Positions 19,413 to 33,269 are shown, counted from the first letter of the stretch. The stretch is DNA of 64,000 nucleotides from Candidatus Saccharimonadota bacterium (GCA_017545595.1 JAFWLO010000011.1:37921-101920); one strand, 5' to 3'. Translations and numbers: made by a program. Notes: generated from the sequence alone by a model not told the origin.

Positions 19413-22400
19413 GTGAACAAAACAACGACGACCGGTCGCAAGTTCTTCACTGAAGGCGACCAAGCCCTCCCAATTCCTGATTTGATTGCCCACCAAAAAG
19501 ACAGCTGGGAAGATTTTGTCAAATCAGGCCTTCGCGAAGTTTTTAACGAGCTCAATCCGATTGAGGATTACACTCACCAAAAACTCGCGCTCCGCTTTAA
19601 AGATTATTATTTCAAAGAGCCTTCCGAGTCGGAAAGGGAAGCGAAATACAATTTAACAACATACGACGCCCCTCTCCATGTCATCGTCGAGCTAGAAAAC
19701 AAAGTTTCCGGCGAGAAGAAAGAACAGGATATCTTCTTTGGCGATTATCCCTGGATGACCGACCGTGCAACCTTCATCATCAACGGAACTGAGCGCGTTA
19801 TTGTCTCTCAGCTCATTCGCTCCGCAGGCGTCTTTTTCACGGCCGACCAAATCGGCGAACGTCGTTACTACGGCGCAAAAGTCATCCCTGGTCGTGGCGC
19901 TTGGCTCGAATTCGAAACCGCCCCTAACGGCGCAATCTACGTCAAAATCGACCGTCGCCGAAAAATCCCCGTAACAACCCTTCTTCGCGCTCTTGGCGTT
20001 GCGAAAAATTCCGAAATCAAAGAAAAATTCGCAGGTCTCGACGAAGGCGACGTCTCCTATATCGACGCCACCCTCGAGAAAGACACGACCCGTGGCCAGT
20101 CCGAAGCTCTCATCGAAGTTTATCGCAGACTTCGCCCGGGCGACCTCGCGACCGTCGAAAACGCGAAGGACATGATCGAACGCACTTTCTTCGACTACAA
20201 GCGTTACGATTATTCCCGTGTTGGGCGTTTCAAGATTAACCAACGCCTCGGTTTCGACACCCCGAACGATTCCGAACATCGCACCCTCCAGATGAAGGAC
20301 CTTATCGCGATTATCGCCGAAATCATCCGCCTAAACAACACTCAAGACGCCCCAGACGACATCGATTCTCTCGCAAACCGTCGCATAAAGCTCGTTGGCG
20401 AGCTTGTTCAACGTCAATTCCGCCTCGGGATGCTTCGCCTTCAGCGCAACATTCTCGACAGAATGTCAATGGCTAACCTTGAAGAAGTCACTCCTTCTCA
20501 GCTTCTAAATTCTCGCCCTGTCGTCGCCGCCGTCAAGGAATTCTTTGCGTCCTCTCAGCTTTCTCAGCTTATGGACGAAACCAACCCCTTCGCCGAACTC
20601 TCCCACAAGCGCCGTCTGTCTTCGATGGGCCCCGGCGGGCTAACCCGCGAACGCGCCGGCTTTGACGTCCGCGATGCCCACCCGACCCACTACGGTCGCA
20701 TCTGTACCGTCGAAACCCCTGAAGGTGGAAACGTCGGTCTCGTTCTTAACCTCGCGACCTATGCCCGCATAAACGACTATGGCTTCATCGAAGCCCCCTA
20801 CCGCGTCGTTAAAAACGGCAAAGTCACGGACGAAGTTGTTTACGTTGACGCCTCTCTAGAAAACGACATGATTATCGCTGACGCCTCCGTAAAACTCGAC
20901 AAAGACGGAAAGTTTGTCGACACCTACGTTTCTGCTCGCGTCCACGGAACTCCGGCTCAAGTCGAATCTTCTCGCGTCACTCATATCGACGCCGCTCACA
21001 AAGAAATTCTCGGAGTTTCCGCCTCGCTTATTCCTTTCGTCGAGAAAAACCGCGTTGACCGCTCCCTCATGGCCTGCGCCATGCAGAAACAAGCTGTTCC
21101 TCTTCTTAAAACCGACGCTCCCGTCGTCGGAACCGGAATTGAAGGTGAAGTCGCCAAAAACCTCTCCCAAATCGTCTTTGCTGAAGGCGACGGAGAAGTC
21201 AAAAAGGCCGACGGCGTCTCTGTTATCGTCAAATACAAAGACAATTCCGAAAAAGAATACAAACTCGTCCACTTCGAGAAAAACAACGACGACCGCTGTT
21301 ATAACCAACGCACAAAGGTCGTTCGTGGTCAAAAAGTCAAAAAAGGCGACGTCCTTATTGAAGGCGCTTCCATAGAAGATGGCGAACTCGCTCTCGGAAA
21401 AGATCTCCTCGTCGCGTTCATGCCTTGGCGCGGTTACAACATGGATGACGCTATCGTCATCTCTTCCCGCCTCGTAAAAGACGACACTCTGACCTCAATC
21501 AACATCAAAGATTACGACGTTGAGGTTCGCGAAACAAAGCTCGGCCCCGAACAAATCACTCGCGACATTCCAAACGTCAGCGAACATTCCCTTCGTCATC
21601 TCGGCGAAGACGGAATTGTCACCGTCGGTAGCGAAGTTTCCACCGGAGACATTCTCGTCGGGAAAATCACCCCGAAAGGCGAACAAGAGCTTTCTTCCGA
21701 GGAACGTCTCCTCCGAGCCATCTTCGGTGAAAAAGCTAAAGATGTCCGCGACACTTCTGTTCGCATGAACGGCGGAACCGGAAAAGTCATCGGCGTCCGC
21801 ACTTATACTCGCGAACAAGGTCACGACCTCAAAGCTGGCGTCCTCATGCAAATCAAAATCTACGTCGCCGAAATGAGAAAAATCGACGTCGGCGATAAGC
21901 TCGCAGGTCGCCACGGAAACAAAGGTGTCGTTTCTCGCATTCTTCCTGTCGAAGATATGCCCTTCATGGAAGACGGAACTCCAATCGACATCCTTCTTTC
22001 TCCAATGGGCGTCCCAAGCCGCATGAACCTCGGCCAGCTTTTCGAAACCCACCTCGGTTTTGCCGCTAAAAACCTCGGTTACAAAGTCGCCACCCCGTCC
22101 TTCAATGGTGTCCCAGGAGAAGTCATCTCTGAGGAGCTTAAAAAGGCCGGTTTCGACGAAGACGGTCGTGTCCAACTTTACGATGGCCTAACCGGCGAAC
22201 CCTTCAACGAAAGAACTTCCGTCGGTATCATGCACATGATAAAACTCCACCACATGGTCGAAGATAAAATCCACGCCCGTTCAACCGGTCCATACACTAT
22301 GGTCACCCAGCAACCTCTCGGCGGAAAGGCCCAGAACGGTGGTCAGCGTTTCGGAGAAATGGAGGTTTGGGCGCTCGAAGCATACGGTGCCGCCACCACA

Positions 22401-22784
22401 CTCCAAGAAATGTTGACGATAAAATCCGATGATGTTTATGGCCGTGCGAAAGCCTACGAAGCCATCATTAAAAACGAGCCAATCGAAGGCCCGAAGCTTC
22501 CTGAAGGCTTCAACGTCCTCGTCAAAGAGCTCCAAGGTCTCGGTCTTAAAGTCGATCTTCTTGACCATGGAGAAATCAACGATGCTTCCGACGTCATTGA
22601 AGAAACTTCCCGCGAAATAGAAAAAGAACAGGACGACCAGCTCATTTACGCACAACACAAAGAAGAAACCGAACCGACTATAACCGACCTCGATTCGGAA
22701 GAAACTAAAGAAATCTTAGAAGACGAAGGAATTCAAATAACAGAGGGCGATGACGCAACCACCGACCTCGGAGAGGAGATCTAA
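19413..22784 (+). CDS. rpoB: RNA polymerase beta subunit
   Basis: SSQLSQ, HKRRLS.GPGGL, GDKLAGRHGNKG, GGQRFGEMEVWALEAYGA; GTG start. Confidence 0.99.
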   Translation: MNKTTTTGRKFFTEGDQALPIPDLIAHQKDSWEDFVKSGLREVFNELNPIEDYTHQKLALRFKDYYFKEPSESEREAKYNLTTYDAPLHVIVELENKVSGEKKEQDIFFGDYPWMTDRATFIINGTERVIVSQLIRSAGVFFTADQIGERRYYGAKVIPGRGAWLEFETAPNGAIYVKIDRRRKIPVTTLLRALGVAKNSEIKEKFAGLDEGDVSYIDATLEKDTTRGQSEALIEVYRRLRPGDLATVENAKDMIERTFFDYKRYDYSRVGRFKINQRLGFDTPNDSEHRTLQMKDLIAIIAEIIRLNNTQDAPDDIDSLANRRIKLVGELVQRQFRLGMLRLQRNILDRMSMANLEEVTPSQLLNSRPVVAAVKEFFASSQLSQLMDETNPFAELSHKRRLSSMGPGGLTRERAGFDVRDAHPTHYGRICTVETPEGGNVGLVLNLATYARINDYGFIEAPYRVVKNGKVTDEVVYVDASLENDMIIADASVKLDKDGKFVDTYVSARVHGTPAQVESSRVTHIDAAHKEILGVSASLIPFVEKNRVDRSLMACAMQKQAVPLLKTDAPVVGTGIEGEVAKNLSQIVFAEGDGEVKKADGVSVIVKYKDNSEKEYKLVHFEKNNDDRCYNQRTKVVRGQKVKKGDVLIEGASIEDGELALGKDLLVAFMPWRGYNMDDAIVISSRLVKDDTLTSINIKDYDVEVRETKLGPEQITRDIPNVSEHSLRHLGEDGIVTVGSEVSTGDILVGKITPKGEQELSSEERLLRAIFGEKAKDVRDTSVRMNGGTGKVIGVRTYTREQGHDLKAGVLMQIKIYVAEMRKIDVGDKLAGRHGNKGVVSRILPVEDMPFMEDGTPIDILLSPMGVPSRMNLGQLFETHLGFAAKNLGYKVATPSFNGVPGEVISEELKKAGFDEDGRVQLYDGLTGEPFNERTSVGIMHMIKLHHMVEDKIHARSTGPYTMVTQQPLGGKAQNGGQRFGEMEVWALEAYGAATTLQEMLTIKSDDVYGRAKAYEAIIKNEPIEGPKLPEGFNVLVKELQGLGLKVDLLDHGEINDASDVIEETSREIEKEQDDQLIYAQHKEETEPTITDLDSEETKEILEDEGIQITEGDDATTDLGEEI

Positions 22785-22785
22785 T

Positions 22786-25700
22786 ATGGCCTGGAATTAC
22801 AACAACTACATCAGTGCCAACGATTTTGATTCGATTCGTCTCAGCGTAGCTTCCGCAGAAGACATTCTAAACTGGAGCTACGGGCAGGTTACAAAACCCG
22901 AGACAATCAACTATCGAACTCAAAAACCTGAGCGCGACGGTCTTTTCTGTGAAAAGATTTTCGGCCCAGTAAAAGACATTAACCCTCACGACGCAAAACT
23001 CAAAGGCATTCGTTCTCGCGAAGCTGCCGTCGATAAAGAAGGGAATCTTGTCACAAAGTCCATCACACGCCGCGAGCGCATGGGTCACATCGCCCTCGCC
23101 GCTCCCGTCACTCATATCTGGTTTATGCGCGGAACGCCATCCGCTCTTGCAACATTGCTTGATTTAACCGTTAAAAACATCGAGAAAGTTGTTTATTTCG
23201 CGACCTACTTAATCACCGAAGCGAAAGACGAAGAAGTCGAAAAAACTCTTCACGACCTTGAAGCTCAGACCGAAGCCGCGAGAAACGCAATAAAAATCCG
23301 CTACGAGAACGAAGCCTCCGTTGAGGGTGCTGACGTTCGCGCTCTCGCCGAAGCTCAAACAAAAGAGCTAGAAGAGCTCGAAACCGATTTTGTTCGCCGA
23401 AAGTCCTATCTCGAAGGCTTCCACAAAGGCGCTATCCTTTCTGAGCACGATTATCGCGAGCTCCCCGAAGAATACGAAGATTTAATCGAAGTCGGAATGG
23501 GCGCAACCGCCATCAAAAAACTTCTCGATGAAATCGATCTTGACCTTCTTATCAACGAAATCAAAGAACAATCCGAAACCGCCAAGGGTCAAAAGGCGAA
23601 AAAACTCATCAAACGCCTAAAAACCCTCGAAGGAATGCAATCCGCCGGCATAAAGCCAAGCGACCTCGTTCTGACGGTTATTCCAGTCATTCCTCCGGAT
23701 CTTCGTCCAATGATTTCTCTCCCAGGCGGACGTTTTGCAACCTCCGATTTGAACGACCTTTATCGCCGTGTCATAAACCGCAATAATCGTCTGAAAAAGC
23801 TTCTCGATCTTAACGCTCCAGAAGTTATCTGCCGAAACGAAATGCGTATGCTCCAAGAGGCCGTCGATGCCCTCATCGACAACTCCGCATCTCACGGTTC
23901 TCGCTCTGCCGCTTCCCAAAACGGCCGAAGAAAGCTCAAATCTCTCTCCGACCTCTTGAAAGGAAAGCAAGGTCGCTTCCGCCAGAACCTCCTCGGAAAA
24001 CGCGTCGACTATTCCGGCCGCTCCGTCATCGTTGTTGGTCCTGAGCTAAAACTCAACGAATGTGGCCTCCCGAAGCAAATGGCGCTCGAACTCTTTAAGC
24101 CTTTCGTAATTTCTTGGCTCATCCGCAATGAACACGCAAACAACATCCGCGCCGCCGCTCGCATGATCGAAGCAGGAGAAAACGTCGTTTGGGATGCTCT
24201 CGACGAAGTTATTCAAGGTCGTTATGTCCTCTTGAACCGCGCTCCGTCCCTCCACCGTCTCTCTGTTCAGGCTTTCCAGCCAAAACTCATCAACGGAAAA
24301 GCCATCCAGCTTCACCCGCTCGTCGCATCCGGTTTCAACGCCGACTACGACGGCGACCAAATGGCTGTCCACCTTCCGCTATCCGACGCCGCCCAAGCCG
24401 AAGCCCGCGAACTCATGTCCGCAACTAAAAACCTTCTTAAACCTGCCGACGGTGCCCCTGTTCTCGCGATTTATCAGGATGTCGTTCTCGGAATTTACTA
24501 CCTAACTTACGACAAACCCGGGACCGACACCGAAAAAGCCCATGCCTTCTCTTCGATTTACGAAGCAGAAATGGCCTACGACAAGGGTCTAATCGCGCTC
24601 CAAACCCCAATTCGTGTCTTCGCGAAGAAAGAAATCAGAAACACGACTCTCGGACGTGTCATCTTTAACGAAATCCTCCCGAAGGATTATCCGTTCGACA
24701 ACTCCGTCCAGACTTCGAAACAACTTAAAAAAGTCATGGCGAACATTTTCGACCAATACGGCCCCGAAGTAACCGTAAAAACCGCCGACGCCGTCAAAAA
24801 CCTCGCCTTCGAGTATGAAACTATCGCTTCCGTCTCGACAGCGAAAGACGATTACCCGACTTATCCAGAAATCGCCGACTTTATCGCCGAAGGAGACGCG
24901 AAGACCGCTTTGATTCAAGACCAATTCAACCAAGGTCTCGTAACCGAAGAGGAAAGAAAGAACCTTACGATCGCAAACTGGCGAGACATCGACAAGAAAA
25001 TCTCCGACTTCCTTAAAGAAAAACTCTCCACGATGGACACAGACATCGCCGTCATGGTCAACTCCGGCGCTCGTGGTTCCGTTTCGAACATCAAACTCGC
25101 TTCCGCAGAAATCGGTATCATGGTCGATATCAACAACAACGAAATCGAGCTCCCTGTTAAATCTTCTTACAAAGAAGGCCTAAACACTCTCGAATCCTTC
25201 ATTGCGACCCGAGGCGCTCGCCAAGGTCAGGTTTCGACCGCTCTCCGTACTGCCGACTCTGGTTACCTCACCCGTCGCCTCGTTGACGTCGCTCAAGATG
25301 TCTTCACGACCGATGAAGAAGCTTACGATCCAGGCTTTACAGTCTATAAATCAGAAACCGAACAAACTGGCATCGCTTTCTCTGTCCGCATTGCTGGACG
25401 CTACACCGCCGAAGCTATCCCAGGCTATCTTGAAGCCGACGAGCTCATCACAAACGACCTCGCTGCTCAAATCGAAGCCGACGATAAGATAGAAAGTGTA
25501 AAAATCCAATCCGTTCTCTCGACGACCGCCGTTAATGGCGTCCCGAGAAAAGCTTACGGTGTCGATATGTCCACCCGCGAACTTGTTGAAGCAAACCAGC
25601 CTGTCGGAGTTATCGCCGCACAATCCCTCGGCGAACCGGGCACCCAACTCACTCTCGATACAAAACACGGTTCTGGTGTTGCTGGCTCCGGCGCTATCGC

Positions 25701-26613
25701 TCGAGGTCTTCCTCGTGTCGAGGAGCTTCTCGAAGCCCGCTCCCCTAAAGGTCAAGCCTGGATTTCTCCTATCGACGGTATCGTCGAAGTCCACGAAGAC
25801 GGAAATCACTACATCGTAACCGTCTCCCCTCAGGCCGGAGAAACCGTTCGTATCGAACTTGGCGACAAAAAGTCGAAAATTAAAGACGGCGCCTCCGTCA
25901 AAACCGGCGACGTAATCGCTTCAAAAGCGAAAGGTCTCGAACCTATCATCGCCCCGTTCGACGGAAATGCTCAACTTGTTGAAGGCGCAATCATCCTCGT
26001 CGGAACCGCCGGAAGCCCAGTTCGCATCGAAATTCCGAACACAGCCGAACTTGTCGTTAAAAACGATGATTCCGTCACCGCTGGCGATCGTCTCACGACT
26101 GGTTCTTTGAACCTCCAAGACCTTCTCCGTTACAAGGGAACCGAAGAAACCGAACGCTATATCATGAACGACGTTATGTCTGTCTATGCTGCCCAAGGCC
26201 ACGAAATCTCTTCGAAACACTTCGAAGTTATCATCCGTCAGATGTTTAACCGCGTCATGATTACCGATTCTGGAGATAGTTCCTTCGTTGCTGGCGACAT
26301 CATCGGTCGCGCCGCTGTCGAAGCCAAAAACAAATCCCTCGAAGCCGAGAAAAAGACCCCTGCAAGCTTCGACGCCCTCCTTCTCGGAATTACCAAGGTT
26401 TCTATCTGGTCCGATTCGTTCTTGTCCGCCGCGTCCTTCCAGGACACAACTCGCGTTCTCATCAACGCCGCAACCCACGGTCGCATCGACCATCTCCATG
26501 GTCTAAAAGAGAACGTCATCATTGGTCGCAAGATTCCTGTCGGAACTGGCGTAAAACCCCTAAAACTCGAAAATTCCGCCGAACCGACCGAAGAAGACCT
26601 CGCAGGCTTCTAA
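22786..26613 (+). CDS. rpoC: RNA polymerase beta-prime subunit (start moved to ATG 22786)
   Basis: RERMGHI, NADYDGDQMAVH, SGYLTRRLVDVAQD, LKENVIIG; SD GAGGAG before 22786. Confidence 0.99.
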   Translation: MAWNYNNYISANDFDSIRLSVASAEDILNWSYGQVTKPETINYRTQKPERDGLFCEKIFGPVKDINPHDAKLKGIRSREAAVDKEGNLVTKSITRRERMGHIALAAPVTHIWFMRGTPSALATLLDLTVKNIEKVVYFATYLITEAKDEEVEKTLHDLEAQTEAARNAIKIRYENEASVEGADVRALAEAQTKELEELETDFVRRKSYLEGFHKGAILSEHDYRELPEEYEDLIEVGMGATAIKKLLDEIDLDLLINEIKEQSETAKGQKAKKLIKRLKTLEGMQSAGIKPSDLVLTVIPVIPPDLRPMISLPGGRFATSDLNDLYRRVINRNNRLKKLLDLNAPEVICRNEMRMLQEAVDALIDNSASHGSRSAASQNGRRKLKSLSDLLKGKQGRFRQNLLGKRVDYSGRSVIVVGPELKLNECGLPKQMALELFKPFVISWLIRNEHANNIRAAARMIEAGENVVWDALDEVIQGRYVLLNRAPSLHRLSVQAFQPKLINGKAIQLHPLVASGFNADYDGDQMAVHLPLSDAAQAEARELMSATKNLLKPADGAPVLAIYQDVVLGIYYLTYDKPGTDTEKAHAFSSIYEAEMAYDKGLIALQTPIRVFAKKEIRNTTLGRVIFNEILPKDYPFDNSVQTSKQLKKVMANIFDQYGPEVTVKTADAVKNLAFEYETIASVSTAKDDYPTYPEIADFIAEGDAKTALIQDQFNQGLVTEEERKNLTIANWRDIDKKISDFLKEKLSTMDTDIAVMVNSGARGSVSNIKLASAEIGIMVDINNNEIELPVKSSYKEGLNTLESFIATRGARQGQVSTALRTADSGYLTRRLVDVAQDVFTTDEEAYDPGFTVYKSETEQTGIAFSVRIAGRYTAEAIPGYLEADELITNDLAAQIEADDKIESVKIQSVLSTTAVNGVPRKAYGVDMSTRELVEANQPVGVIAAQSLGEPGTQLTLDTKHGSGVAGSGAIARGLPRVEELLEARSPKGQAWISPIDGIVEVHEDGNHYIVTVSPQAGETVRIELGDKKSKIKDGASVKTGDVIASKAKGLEPIIAPFDGNAQLVEGAIILVGTAGSPVRIEIPNTAELVVKNDDSVTAGDRLTTGSLNLQDLLRYKGTEETERYIMNDVMSVYAAQGHEISSKHFEVIIRQMFNRVMITDSGDSSFVAGDIIGRAAVEAKNKSLEAEKKTPASFDALLLGITKVSIWSDSFLSAASFQDTTRVLINAATHGRIDHLHGLKENVIIGRKIPVGTGVKPLKLENSAEPTEEDLAGF

Positions 26614-26666: not shown

Positions 26667-26762
26667 GTTCTCAATACCTAATTTATTGACTTTTTATCCC
26701 TCTTGTGCTATAATAAGAGAATAACGTTTGTTAAGTTCTTACACATACAGGAGGGGAAGAAA

Positions 26763-27086
26763 ATGGATGTCTTATTCGAAAACAACGTAGAAGTCGTAGA
26801 AGATCAAGAACTAAAAGAGGCTTTACGATTAGTCTACAAACGAATCTGGCAAGAAGAACCAAATCTGAAAGGATTTTGTATTCCCGAAAGGGAAGCAATC
26901 GAAGTTCTAAAAGCCACAGTTCAAATCGCAAGCAAAATATACACTTTAGGCGTATCTGGGCTACATGCTCATGAAACCGAGTCCTACAAAGAGCCAACAG
27001 AAATTATGTTTCATATAAATTATGACAACAGTTGCAATGCCTCAAGCGGAACCCTAACTATTAAATGCACAGATGCCATCTTCTAA
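26763..27086 (+). CDS. Orphan hypothetical protein (107 aa, start moved to ATG 26763)
   Basis: SD AGGAGG; promoter 26686-26714; terminator GCCCCG/CGGGGC at ~27095-27116. Confidence 0.65.
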   Translation: MDVLFENNVEVVEDQELKEALRLVYKRIWQEEPNLKGFCIPEREAIEVLKATVQIASKIYTLGVSGLHAHETESYKEPTEIMFHINYDNSCNASSGTLTIKCTDAIF

Positions 27087-32429: not shown

Positions 32430-32998
32430 TGGCAGACAAATACGTTCCTCGTCTCAAAACTCTTTACAATGACGAGATTAAAGAATCCCTCAAAAAAGAA
32501 CTTAACTTAAAAAACATCAATCAAGTTCCTGTTCTTGAAAAAGTTGTTGTTTCTTCCGGCGTCGGAAAGAAACGCGAAGACAAACGTTTCACGGAAACCG
32601 TTGAACTTACCCTTGAGAAAATCACCGGGCAAGCCTCAACTTCGCGCCTCGCTAAAAAATCCATCGCGACCTTCAAAATCCGCAAAGGTATGGGCGCTCC
32701 AGTTGGATATCTGACCACTCTTCGAAACGACAAAATGTACGAATTCATCGATCGCCTCATCAACGTCGCGCTTCCGCACGTACGCGATTTCCACGGCGTT
32801 TCTCGAAATTCGTTCGATGCTCAAGGGAATTATTCTCTTGGCCTCCGAGAGCAAACAGTTTTCCCCGAGATTACTTTCGAAGATTCTGCTGTCCTCCACG
32901 GCCTTGAAGTTACGTTCATTATTAAAAACGGTTCTAAAGAAGGAAGTACTAAATTGCTAGAAAAATTCGGCATGCCGTTTGAGAAGGAGAATAAATAA
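32429..32998 (+). CDS. rplE: 50S ribosomal protein uL5
   Basis: [37 protein letters not shown]. Confidence 0.97.
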
Positions 32999-32999
32999 C

Positions 33000-33269
33000 A
33001 TGGCTAAAAAATCCGCTGTTCTCCGCGATCAAAAACGCGCAAAAATGTATGCAAAATATAAAGCAAAACACGATGAGCTTAAAGCCGCTGGCGATCTCGA
33101 AGGTCTCCAAAAGCTTCCCCGAAACGCGTCTATAACTCGCCTCAAAAACCGCGATATGCTCGACGGTCGCCCTCGAGGCTATATGCGCAGATTCGGCCTC
33201 AGCCGTATTAACTTCCGAGAAAAAGCCTCCAAGGGAGAAATCCCAGGCGTAACAAAGAGTAGCTGGTAG
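33000..33269 (+). CDS. rpsN: 30S ribosomal protein uS14, long Cys-free form (start moved to 33000)
   Basis: [31 protein letters not shown]. Confidence 0.96.

Follow-up and report, generated by a model that had tools for sequence, protein, structure and literature searches.

An RNA polymerase beta-prime subunit without the cysteine ligands of either zinc site in one order of Saccharibacteria

Introduction

Both zinc sites of the RNA polymerase beta-prime subunit are treated as near-universal. The first site (Zn1) has roles in termination and antitermination, in contacts with sigma region 4 and spacer DNA, and in Rho docking. The second site (Zn2) is reportedly necessary for assembly of the beta-prime subunit, as Markov and co-workers are said to have held in 1999. 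The closest solved structures to the protein described here are those of actinobacterial beta-prime (Mycobacterium and Streptomyces), which retains its zinc sites. In ribosomal proteins, zinc-independent C-minus forms of zinc-ribbon proteins were reportedly described by Makarova, Ponomarev and Koonin in 2001; C-minus ribosomal proteins are usually extra paralogues that are switched on under zinc starvation.

Here we describe a beta-prime subunit encoded in a window of 64,000 nucleotides (the whole stretch of DNA analyzed) from Candidatus Saccharimonadota bacterium. It resembles canonical bacterial beta-prime in its domain architecture, its NADFDGD-type motif, the position and length of Zn1, the equivalents of K74 and K87, and its place in an rpoBC operon, but all eight zinc ligands of the canonical protein (C70, C72, C85 and C88, and C814, C888, C895 and C898 in E. 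coli numbering) are replaced. As in C-minus L36, L31, L33 and S14, a Cys-zinc knuckle has given way to a sequence that would be metal-free, and the L36 of the same genome is itself such a form. Unlike the C-minus ribosomal proteins, however, the putatively metal-free beta-prime is the only copy, with no C-plus paralogue in the genome, and the principle extends here to RNA polymerase, primase, and RecR.

The rpoC locus and its zinc ligands

The features of the window on which the analysis of beta-prime rests are as follows.

19413..22784, plus strand: rpoB, RNA polymerase beta, immediately upstream of rpoC, with three cysteines in total
22750..26613, plus strand: rpoC, beta-prime, the longest ORF, 1287 aa
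22972..23055, plus strand: Zn1 counterpart without Cys, residues 75-102, KDINPHDAKLKGIRSREAAVDKEGNLVT, placed by gap-free alignments
23218..23424, plus strand: coiled-coil insertion in beta-prime, residues 157-225 (about 70), a gap versus E. coli in BLASTP
25321..25554, plus strand: former Zn2 site, with A858 within EEAYDPG and T925, P932, and A935 within SVLSTTAVNGVPRKAYG

Taken at full length, the rpoC ORF runs over the last 35 bases of rpoB. Translation probably begins at the ATG at 22786, which lies one base past the rpoB stop with GGAGAGGAG in front and would give a protein of about 1275 aa; residue numbering throughout follows the long ORF. Five Rpb1 Pfam domains (PF04997, PF00623, PF04983, PF05000, and PF04998) are found in this order on the full-length protein, and a phmmer search of PDB matched it to solved bacterial beta-prime chains at E = 0, with actinobacterial chains aligning contiguously from residue 22. 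The catalytic Mg-binding motif reads NADYDGD (residues 530-536, window 24337-24357) and its three Asp residues are intact. Tyr533 in this motif is present in all 20 genus sequences that are readable through it, as against NADFDGD in other families of the order and in other orders.

The source genome comprises 745 kb in 15 contigs and is 98.8% complete, and a genome-wide search gave one rpoC match and no second or zinc-bearing rpoC paralogue. Named relatives of this genome are MAGs assigned to Candidatus Saccharibacteria (TM7) and recovered from the guts of ruminants and other animals, and the closest named genus is Ca. Nanosyncoccus. Downstream of rpoC, an ORF of 127 aa that contains four cysteines and has no evident identity (window 26703-27086) lies before rplC, and the usual genes rpsL-rpsG-fusA-tuf-rpsJ were not found between rpoC and rplC. 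The GC skew of the plus strand is strongly negative over window 1-64000 (-0.13 to -0.47 per 4-kb bin), and this strand nonetheless carries rpoBC and the ribosomal protein genes.

The original prediction, made from the sequence of the window, had claimed a beta-prime without any Cys ligand at both zinc sites. We mapped the ligands by BLASTP against E. coli K-12 RpoC, in which both zinc regions aligned without gaps; a phmmer alignment to the PDB chain 8i23_D agreed with the BLASTP register, and the eight ligand codons were re-read directly in the window. In Zn1, C70, C72, C85, and C88 of E. coli correspond to P79 (codon 22984), D81 (codon 22990), V94 (codon 23029), and E97 (codon 23038), respectively. 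In Zn2, C814, C888, C895, and C898 correspond to A858 (codon 25321), T925 (codon 25522), P932 (codon 25543), and A935 (codon 25552), respectively. Alignment and codons thus bear the claim out, with all eight ligands substituted; the peptides quoted in its favor occur exactly in the sequence, and its coordinates are correct.

Distribution and timing of the loss

We examined which relatives share the loss. The Cys-free motif KDINPHD.K...REAAVDK.G was present in thirty of thirty rpoC loci from the genus of the source genome and ten other families of its order, and the same Cys-free Zn1 motif was found in thirty further loci from a class-wide draw. The combined order sample amounts to 58 genomes from about 20 families, all of them Cys-free at Zn1. 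The four Zn1 cysteines were also missing from every one of 80 named Saccharibacteria contigs, which include Nanosyncoccus, Nanosynbacter-labelled MAGs, TM7 G3 HMT-351, and UBA3723 and may overlap with the 58 order genomes. Because the same replacements occur in every examined genome of the order, chance or sequencing error as the origin of the Cys loss could be ruled out.

Outside the order the picture is the reverse. All eight cysteines are retained in 20 of 20 genomes representing 19 families from other orders of the class, and the four Zn1 cysteines in each of 67 genomes drawn from the phylum's other classes. With Zn1 cysteines present in 87/87 Patescibacteria outside the order, a CPR-wide trait was rejected. 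When a maximum-likelihood tree was inferred with the eight ligand columns removed, the order was monophyletic with support 1.0; since it forms one clade, the loss occurred once, on the stem of the order. The alignment across CPR that had been proposed along with the original prediction, as a way of mapping ligand loss, therefore places the loss on the stem of a single order, and on these comparisons it is a trait of one Saccharibacteria order and not of CPR generally. It had also been allowed that the loss might already be documented as a general trait of the lineage. The trait is indeed general within this one order, but we found no description of a Cys-free beta-prime in Saccharibacteria in searchable full text; a preprint on eroded endosymbiont polymerases refers to the zinc finger as a conserved feature and nothing more.

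The columns of Zn2 have a more graded history. Within the order, the columns of C895 and C898 are never Cys, being P, S, A, or G in the former and A or S in the latter, and relic cysteines persist in the C814 column (858) of 4/29 sequences and in the C888 column (925) of 7/29. A single relic falls in the genus of the source genome, a Cys at column 858 of L019 (Nanosyncoccus), and all others belong to families outside Nanosyncoccus; with that one exception, this genus lacks all four Zn2 cysteines. The relic pattern maps onto the tree. As columns 932 and 935 are never Cys in the order, Zn2 was already broken when the order diversified, and the remaining Zn2 cysteines decayed later and repeatedly.

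Conservation and predicted structure of the Cys-free Zn1 domain

The Zn1 segment keeps its full length and aligns with zinc-bearing relatives without a single insertion or deletion. Within the order, its columns have a mean entropy of 0.28 (0.80 for the whole protein), and only 14% of the 28-residue windows of beta-prime are more conserved. Across 60 order sequences, pN/pS in Zn1 is 0.12 with pS at 0.84; the corresponding ratio is 0.11 in the universally conserved 50 codons before Zn1 and 0.25 in the 60 codons after it. Several charged residues are likewise retained. K83 is the counterpart of E. coli K74 and K96 that of K87; both E. coli lysines contact promoter spacer DNA (bioRxiv 10.1101/2020.01.02.893370). 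K83, K85, and D95 are invariant, and K96 nearly so, in Cys-free and Cys-bearing sequences alike, and R88 and R90 are also retained.

At the same time, Zn1 is enriched in positions that set the order apart from its zinc-bearing relatives. The whole protein has 33 fully diagnostic columns, in which no residue is common to the order and the other orders, and 12 of these fall within the 28 Zn1 positions (hypergeometric P about 2e-13, a value that assumes independent columns, which these are not). Zn1 thus underwent a burst of heavy remodeling on the stem branch and has been near-frozen since, and the strong conservation after the burst points to a rebuilt, functional module rather than a decaying one.

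We also predicted the structure of the first 420 residues with AlphaFold2 from a 46-sequence alignment. The mean pLDDT was 75 overall and 53-62 over residues 71-100, a low-pLDDT segment in which the model has a short hairpin with strands at 92-94 and 100-102. When a Cys-bearing relative was used as the query in the same alignment, the matching segment scored 50-59. Since this control was equally low, the low pLDDT is attributable to the isolated fragment and not to the Cys loss; structure prediction, another check suggested with the original claim, could be carried out but does not discriminate on metal-free folding. In Foldseek, the model recovered only beta-prime itself, with Mycobacterium and Streptomyces as the best matches at 48% identity over the N-terminal 420 residues.

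The coiled-coil insertion is modeled as two long helices (residues 160-189 and 196-223) with pLDDT above 90. It is missing in E. coli and aligns with the insertion of Mycobacterium and Streptomyces, and the zinc-bearing orders of the class have it too; it is a feature of the gene that stands apart from the zinc result. An insertion of actinobacterial type is notable given that Saccharibacteria live on Actinobacteria.

Zinc sites and zinc use elsewhere in the proteome

Zinc sites were also compared in other proteins of the source genome and its relatives. The relevant genes are the following, the first four lying outside the window.

G000:C14:15698-15811: L36, no cysteine
G000:C14:46426-47019: RecR, C4 zinc finger ligands lost
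G000:C2:74090-75289: DnaG, CHC2 zinc ribbon ligands lost
G000:C11:17627-18499: DnaJ, zinc-finger domain deleted
32979..33269, plus strand: probable S14, a 96-aa ORF so assigned by its N-terminus MAKKS... and its position between probable rplE and rpsH

L36 is Cys-free (KKISPDD...VINK) in the source genome and in seven other families of the order (8/8), as opposed to CxxC...C...H in the 16 readable genomes from other orders of the class. The four finger columns of RecR read C-T-S-Y in 8/8 order genomes versus C-C-C-C in 14/14 genomes of other orders. In DnaG, the order has SP[FW]...HDFS[SA] without Cys in 15/15 families, and three genomes of other orders have CPFH...HCFGC. The DnaJ of the source genome (336 aa, one Cys) has lost its CxxCxGxG zinc-finger domain entirely (model positions 144-213), and the eight Cys of DnaJ are retained in another family of the order (G058) and in other orders. 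These distributions place the loss of the DnaG, RecR, and L36 zinc sites on the branch of the rpoC loss, and the deletion of the DnaJ domain later. The conserved Cys4 sites of LigA and L33 are missing in other orders too and so provide no contrast with the order. The probable S14 ORF has no cysteine and is consistent with the long zinc-independent form.

The proteome as a whole shows a more selective pattern. By crude ORF calls, two order genomes have cysteine contents of 0.79% and 0.63%, versus 0.60% and 0.65% for two genomes of other orders, and general cysteine depletion was rejected because the content is equal to or above that of other orders of the class. With two genomes per side, the density of CxxC per 100,000 residues is 27-28 in the order versus 45-47 in other orders, and ORFs with a Cys4 motif number 1.6-2.5 per 100 kb versus 3.5-4.0. 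These counts indicate that cysteine is not avoided, yet the order has only about half as many zinc-knuckle motifs. A complete loss of zinc use was likewise rejected, since Cys4 motifs are retained in UvrA, PriA, RadA, and Fpg of the source genome, which also encodes a ZnuA-family metal-binding protein. With these Cys4 sites in place the cell cannot be called zinc-free, which makes the driver of the change less certain. A ZIP transporter was found in 0/2 order genomes and in 2/3 genomes of other orders, a sample too small to use.

We also considered Rho. In 121/121 genomes of the class (the source genome and 120 others), Rho gave only weak hits below the family cut-off. Loss of Rho was rejected as the cause of the change, because it is equally below the cut-off in orders that retain the cysteines; its apparent class-wide absence may have been permissive for Zn1 loss but does not explain it.

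Possible explanations

The best explanation overall, and in our judgment a likely one when taken as a whole, is that this is a functional beta-prime without structural zinc at either canonical site, and that its change belongs to a wider process in which the order stripped structural Cys-zinc sites out of its core information-processing proteins. It would be the sole functional beta-prime of an epibiont of the Saccharibacteria (TM7) that is closely related to Ca. Nanosyncoccus, with both Zn(Cys)4 sites converted to metal-independent sequence. The zinc-free RNA polymerase put forward in the original prediction thus gains support, at the level of sequence, from the missing ligands, the single gene copy, and the purifying selection. 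Zn1 would still fold into a small, basic hairpin domain that sits on the clamp at the channel where RNA exits. A proline-stiffened turn at N-P-H-D, a hairpin turn at D-K-x-G, and small hydrophobic residues (I77, V94, and A92/A93) may stabilize it in place of zinc, and the domain would continue to contact sigma region 4, spacer DNA, and nascent RNA.

Zn1 might instead still bind zinc or another metal through a non-Cys set of ligands, for example, H80, D81, D95, and E97. Neighboring His and Asp residues can chelate metal in other protein families; D81 and D95 do not vary within the order, and H80, which is common there, took the place of an ancestral Tyr on the branch that also lost the cysteines. 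However, D95 is just as invariant in zinc-bearing relatives and hence is no new ligand, residue 80 is Asn in 12/80 named contigs and Tyr in one genome, residue 97 varies among E, N, D, and K, and two carboxylates are insufficient for a structural zinc site. An order-wide comparison of columns revealed no conserved alternative set of three or four ligands at Zn1, and Zn2 (A, T, P, and A) is without any candidate ligand; we regard continued metal binding at Zn1 as very improbable. It also seems improbable that the former Zn1 is unfolded, a flexible basic loop or vestige whose zinc-dependent roles have become dispensable. The low AlphaFold confidence over residues 71-100 and the sub-cut-off hits for Rho, a known partner of Zn1, throughout the 121 genomes would suit such a loop, but the zinc-bearing control was equally low in pLDDT and Rho is also below the cut-off in orders keeping their cysteines. 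Moreover, a vestige would be expected to drift or be deleted, whereas Zn1 is indel-free, lies in the most conserved ~15% of the protein, and has the low pN/pS given above.

As for the cause of a zinc-site-free beta-prime, zinc economy, avoidance of zinc-thiolate oxidation, and drift with compensation are all possible. The likeliest driver would be that a cell obliged to scavenge everything from its host came to rely less on zinc, or on zinc-thiolate sites prone to oxidation, and not that cysteine is avoided in general. A cause other than zinc sparing, either avoidance of oxidation-sensitive zinc-thiolates or neutral decay in a small population with later fixation of compensatory changes, is rather unlikely in our view. 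A ZnuA-family metal importer is present, the piecemeal decay of the relic Zn2 cysteines is what drift would produce once the site was broken, and the zinc domain of DnaJ was lost later and in some lineages only. On the other hand, a single stem branch saw changes at no fewer than five independent sites in four proteins, a clustering that disfavors drift alone, and the total cysteine content is undiminished, so thiols as such are not avoided. The present data do not separate zinc scarcity from thiolate oxidation. We propose only tentatively that the order rebuilt the zinc sites of its core machinery for transcription, replication, recombination, and translation, in beta-prime (twice), DnaG, RecR, and L36, and later DnaJ, as metal-free modules, those other than DnaJ on one stem branch, and that this change was adaptive, freeing the cell from zinc or from zinc-thiolate chemistry, and tied to epibiotic life; such a history is quite conceivable, without our leaning toward it.

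Implications

What appears to be new here is the set of losses in DnaG, RecR, and L36 on the branch of the rpoC loss, together with the deletion of the DnaJ domain in the source genome. The joint loss in primase, RecR, and L36 widens what would have been a single-protein oddity to a question of how ultra-small epibionts economize on metals or withstand redox stress. Members of the order grow on Actinobacteria that inhabit the human mouth and animal guts, and some are now cultivable; at least one of them can be manipulated genetically (PMC10187176). A species-rich, partly cultivable order that works without the ligands is a natural experiment on the contribution of zinc to RNA polymerase, and the Zn1 and Zn2 regions of Saccharibacteria offer ready-made metal-free sequences for structural work. 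If the order-wide rebuilding proposed above is true, the rebuilt modules would be natural metal-free versions of domains believed to require zinc for folding.
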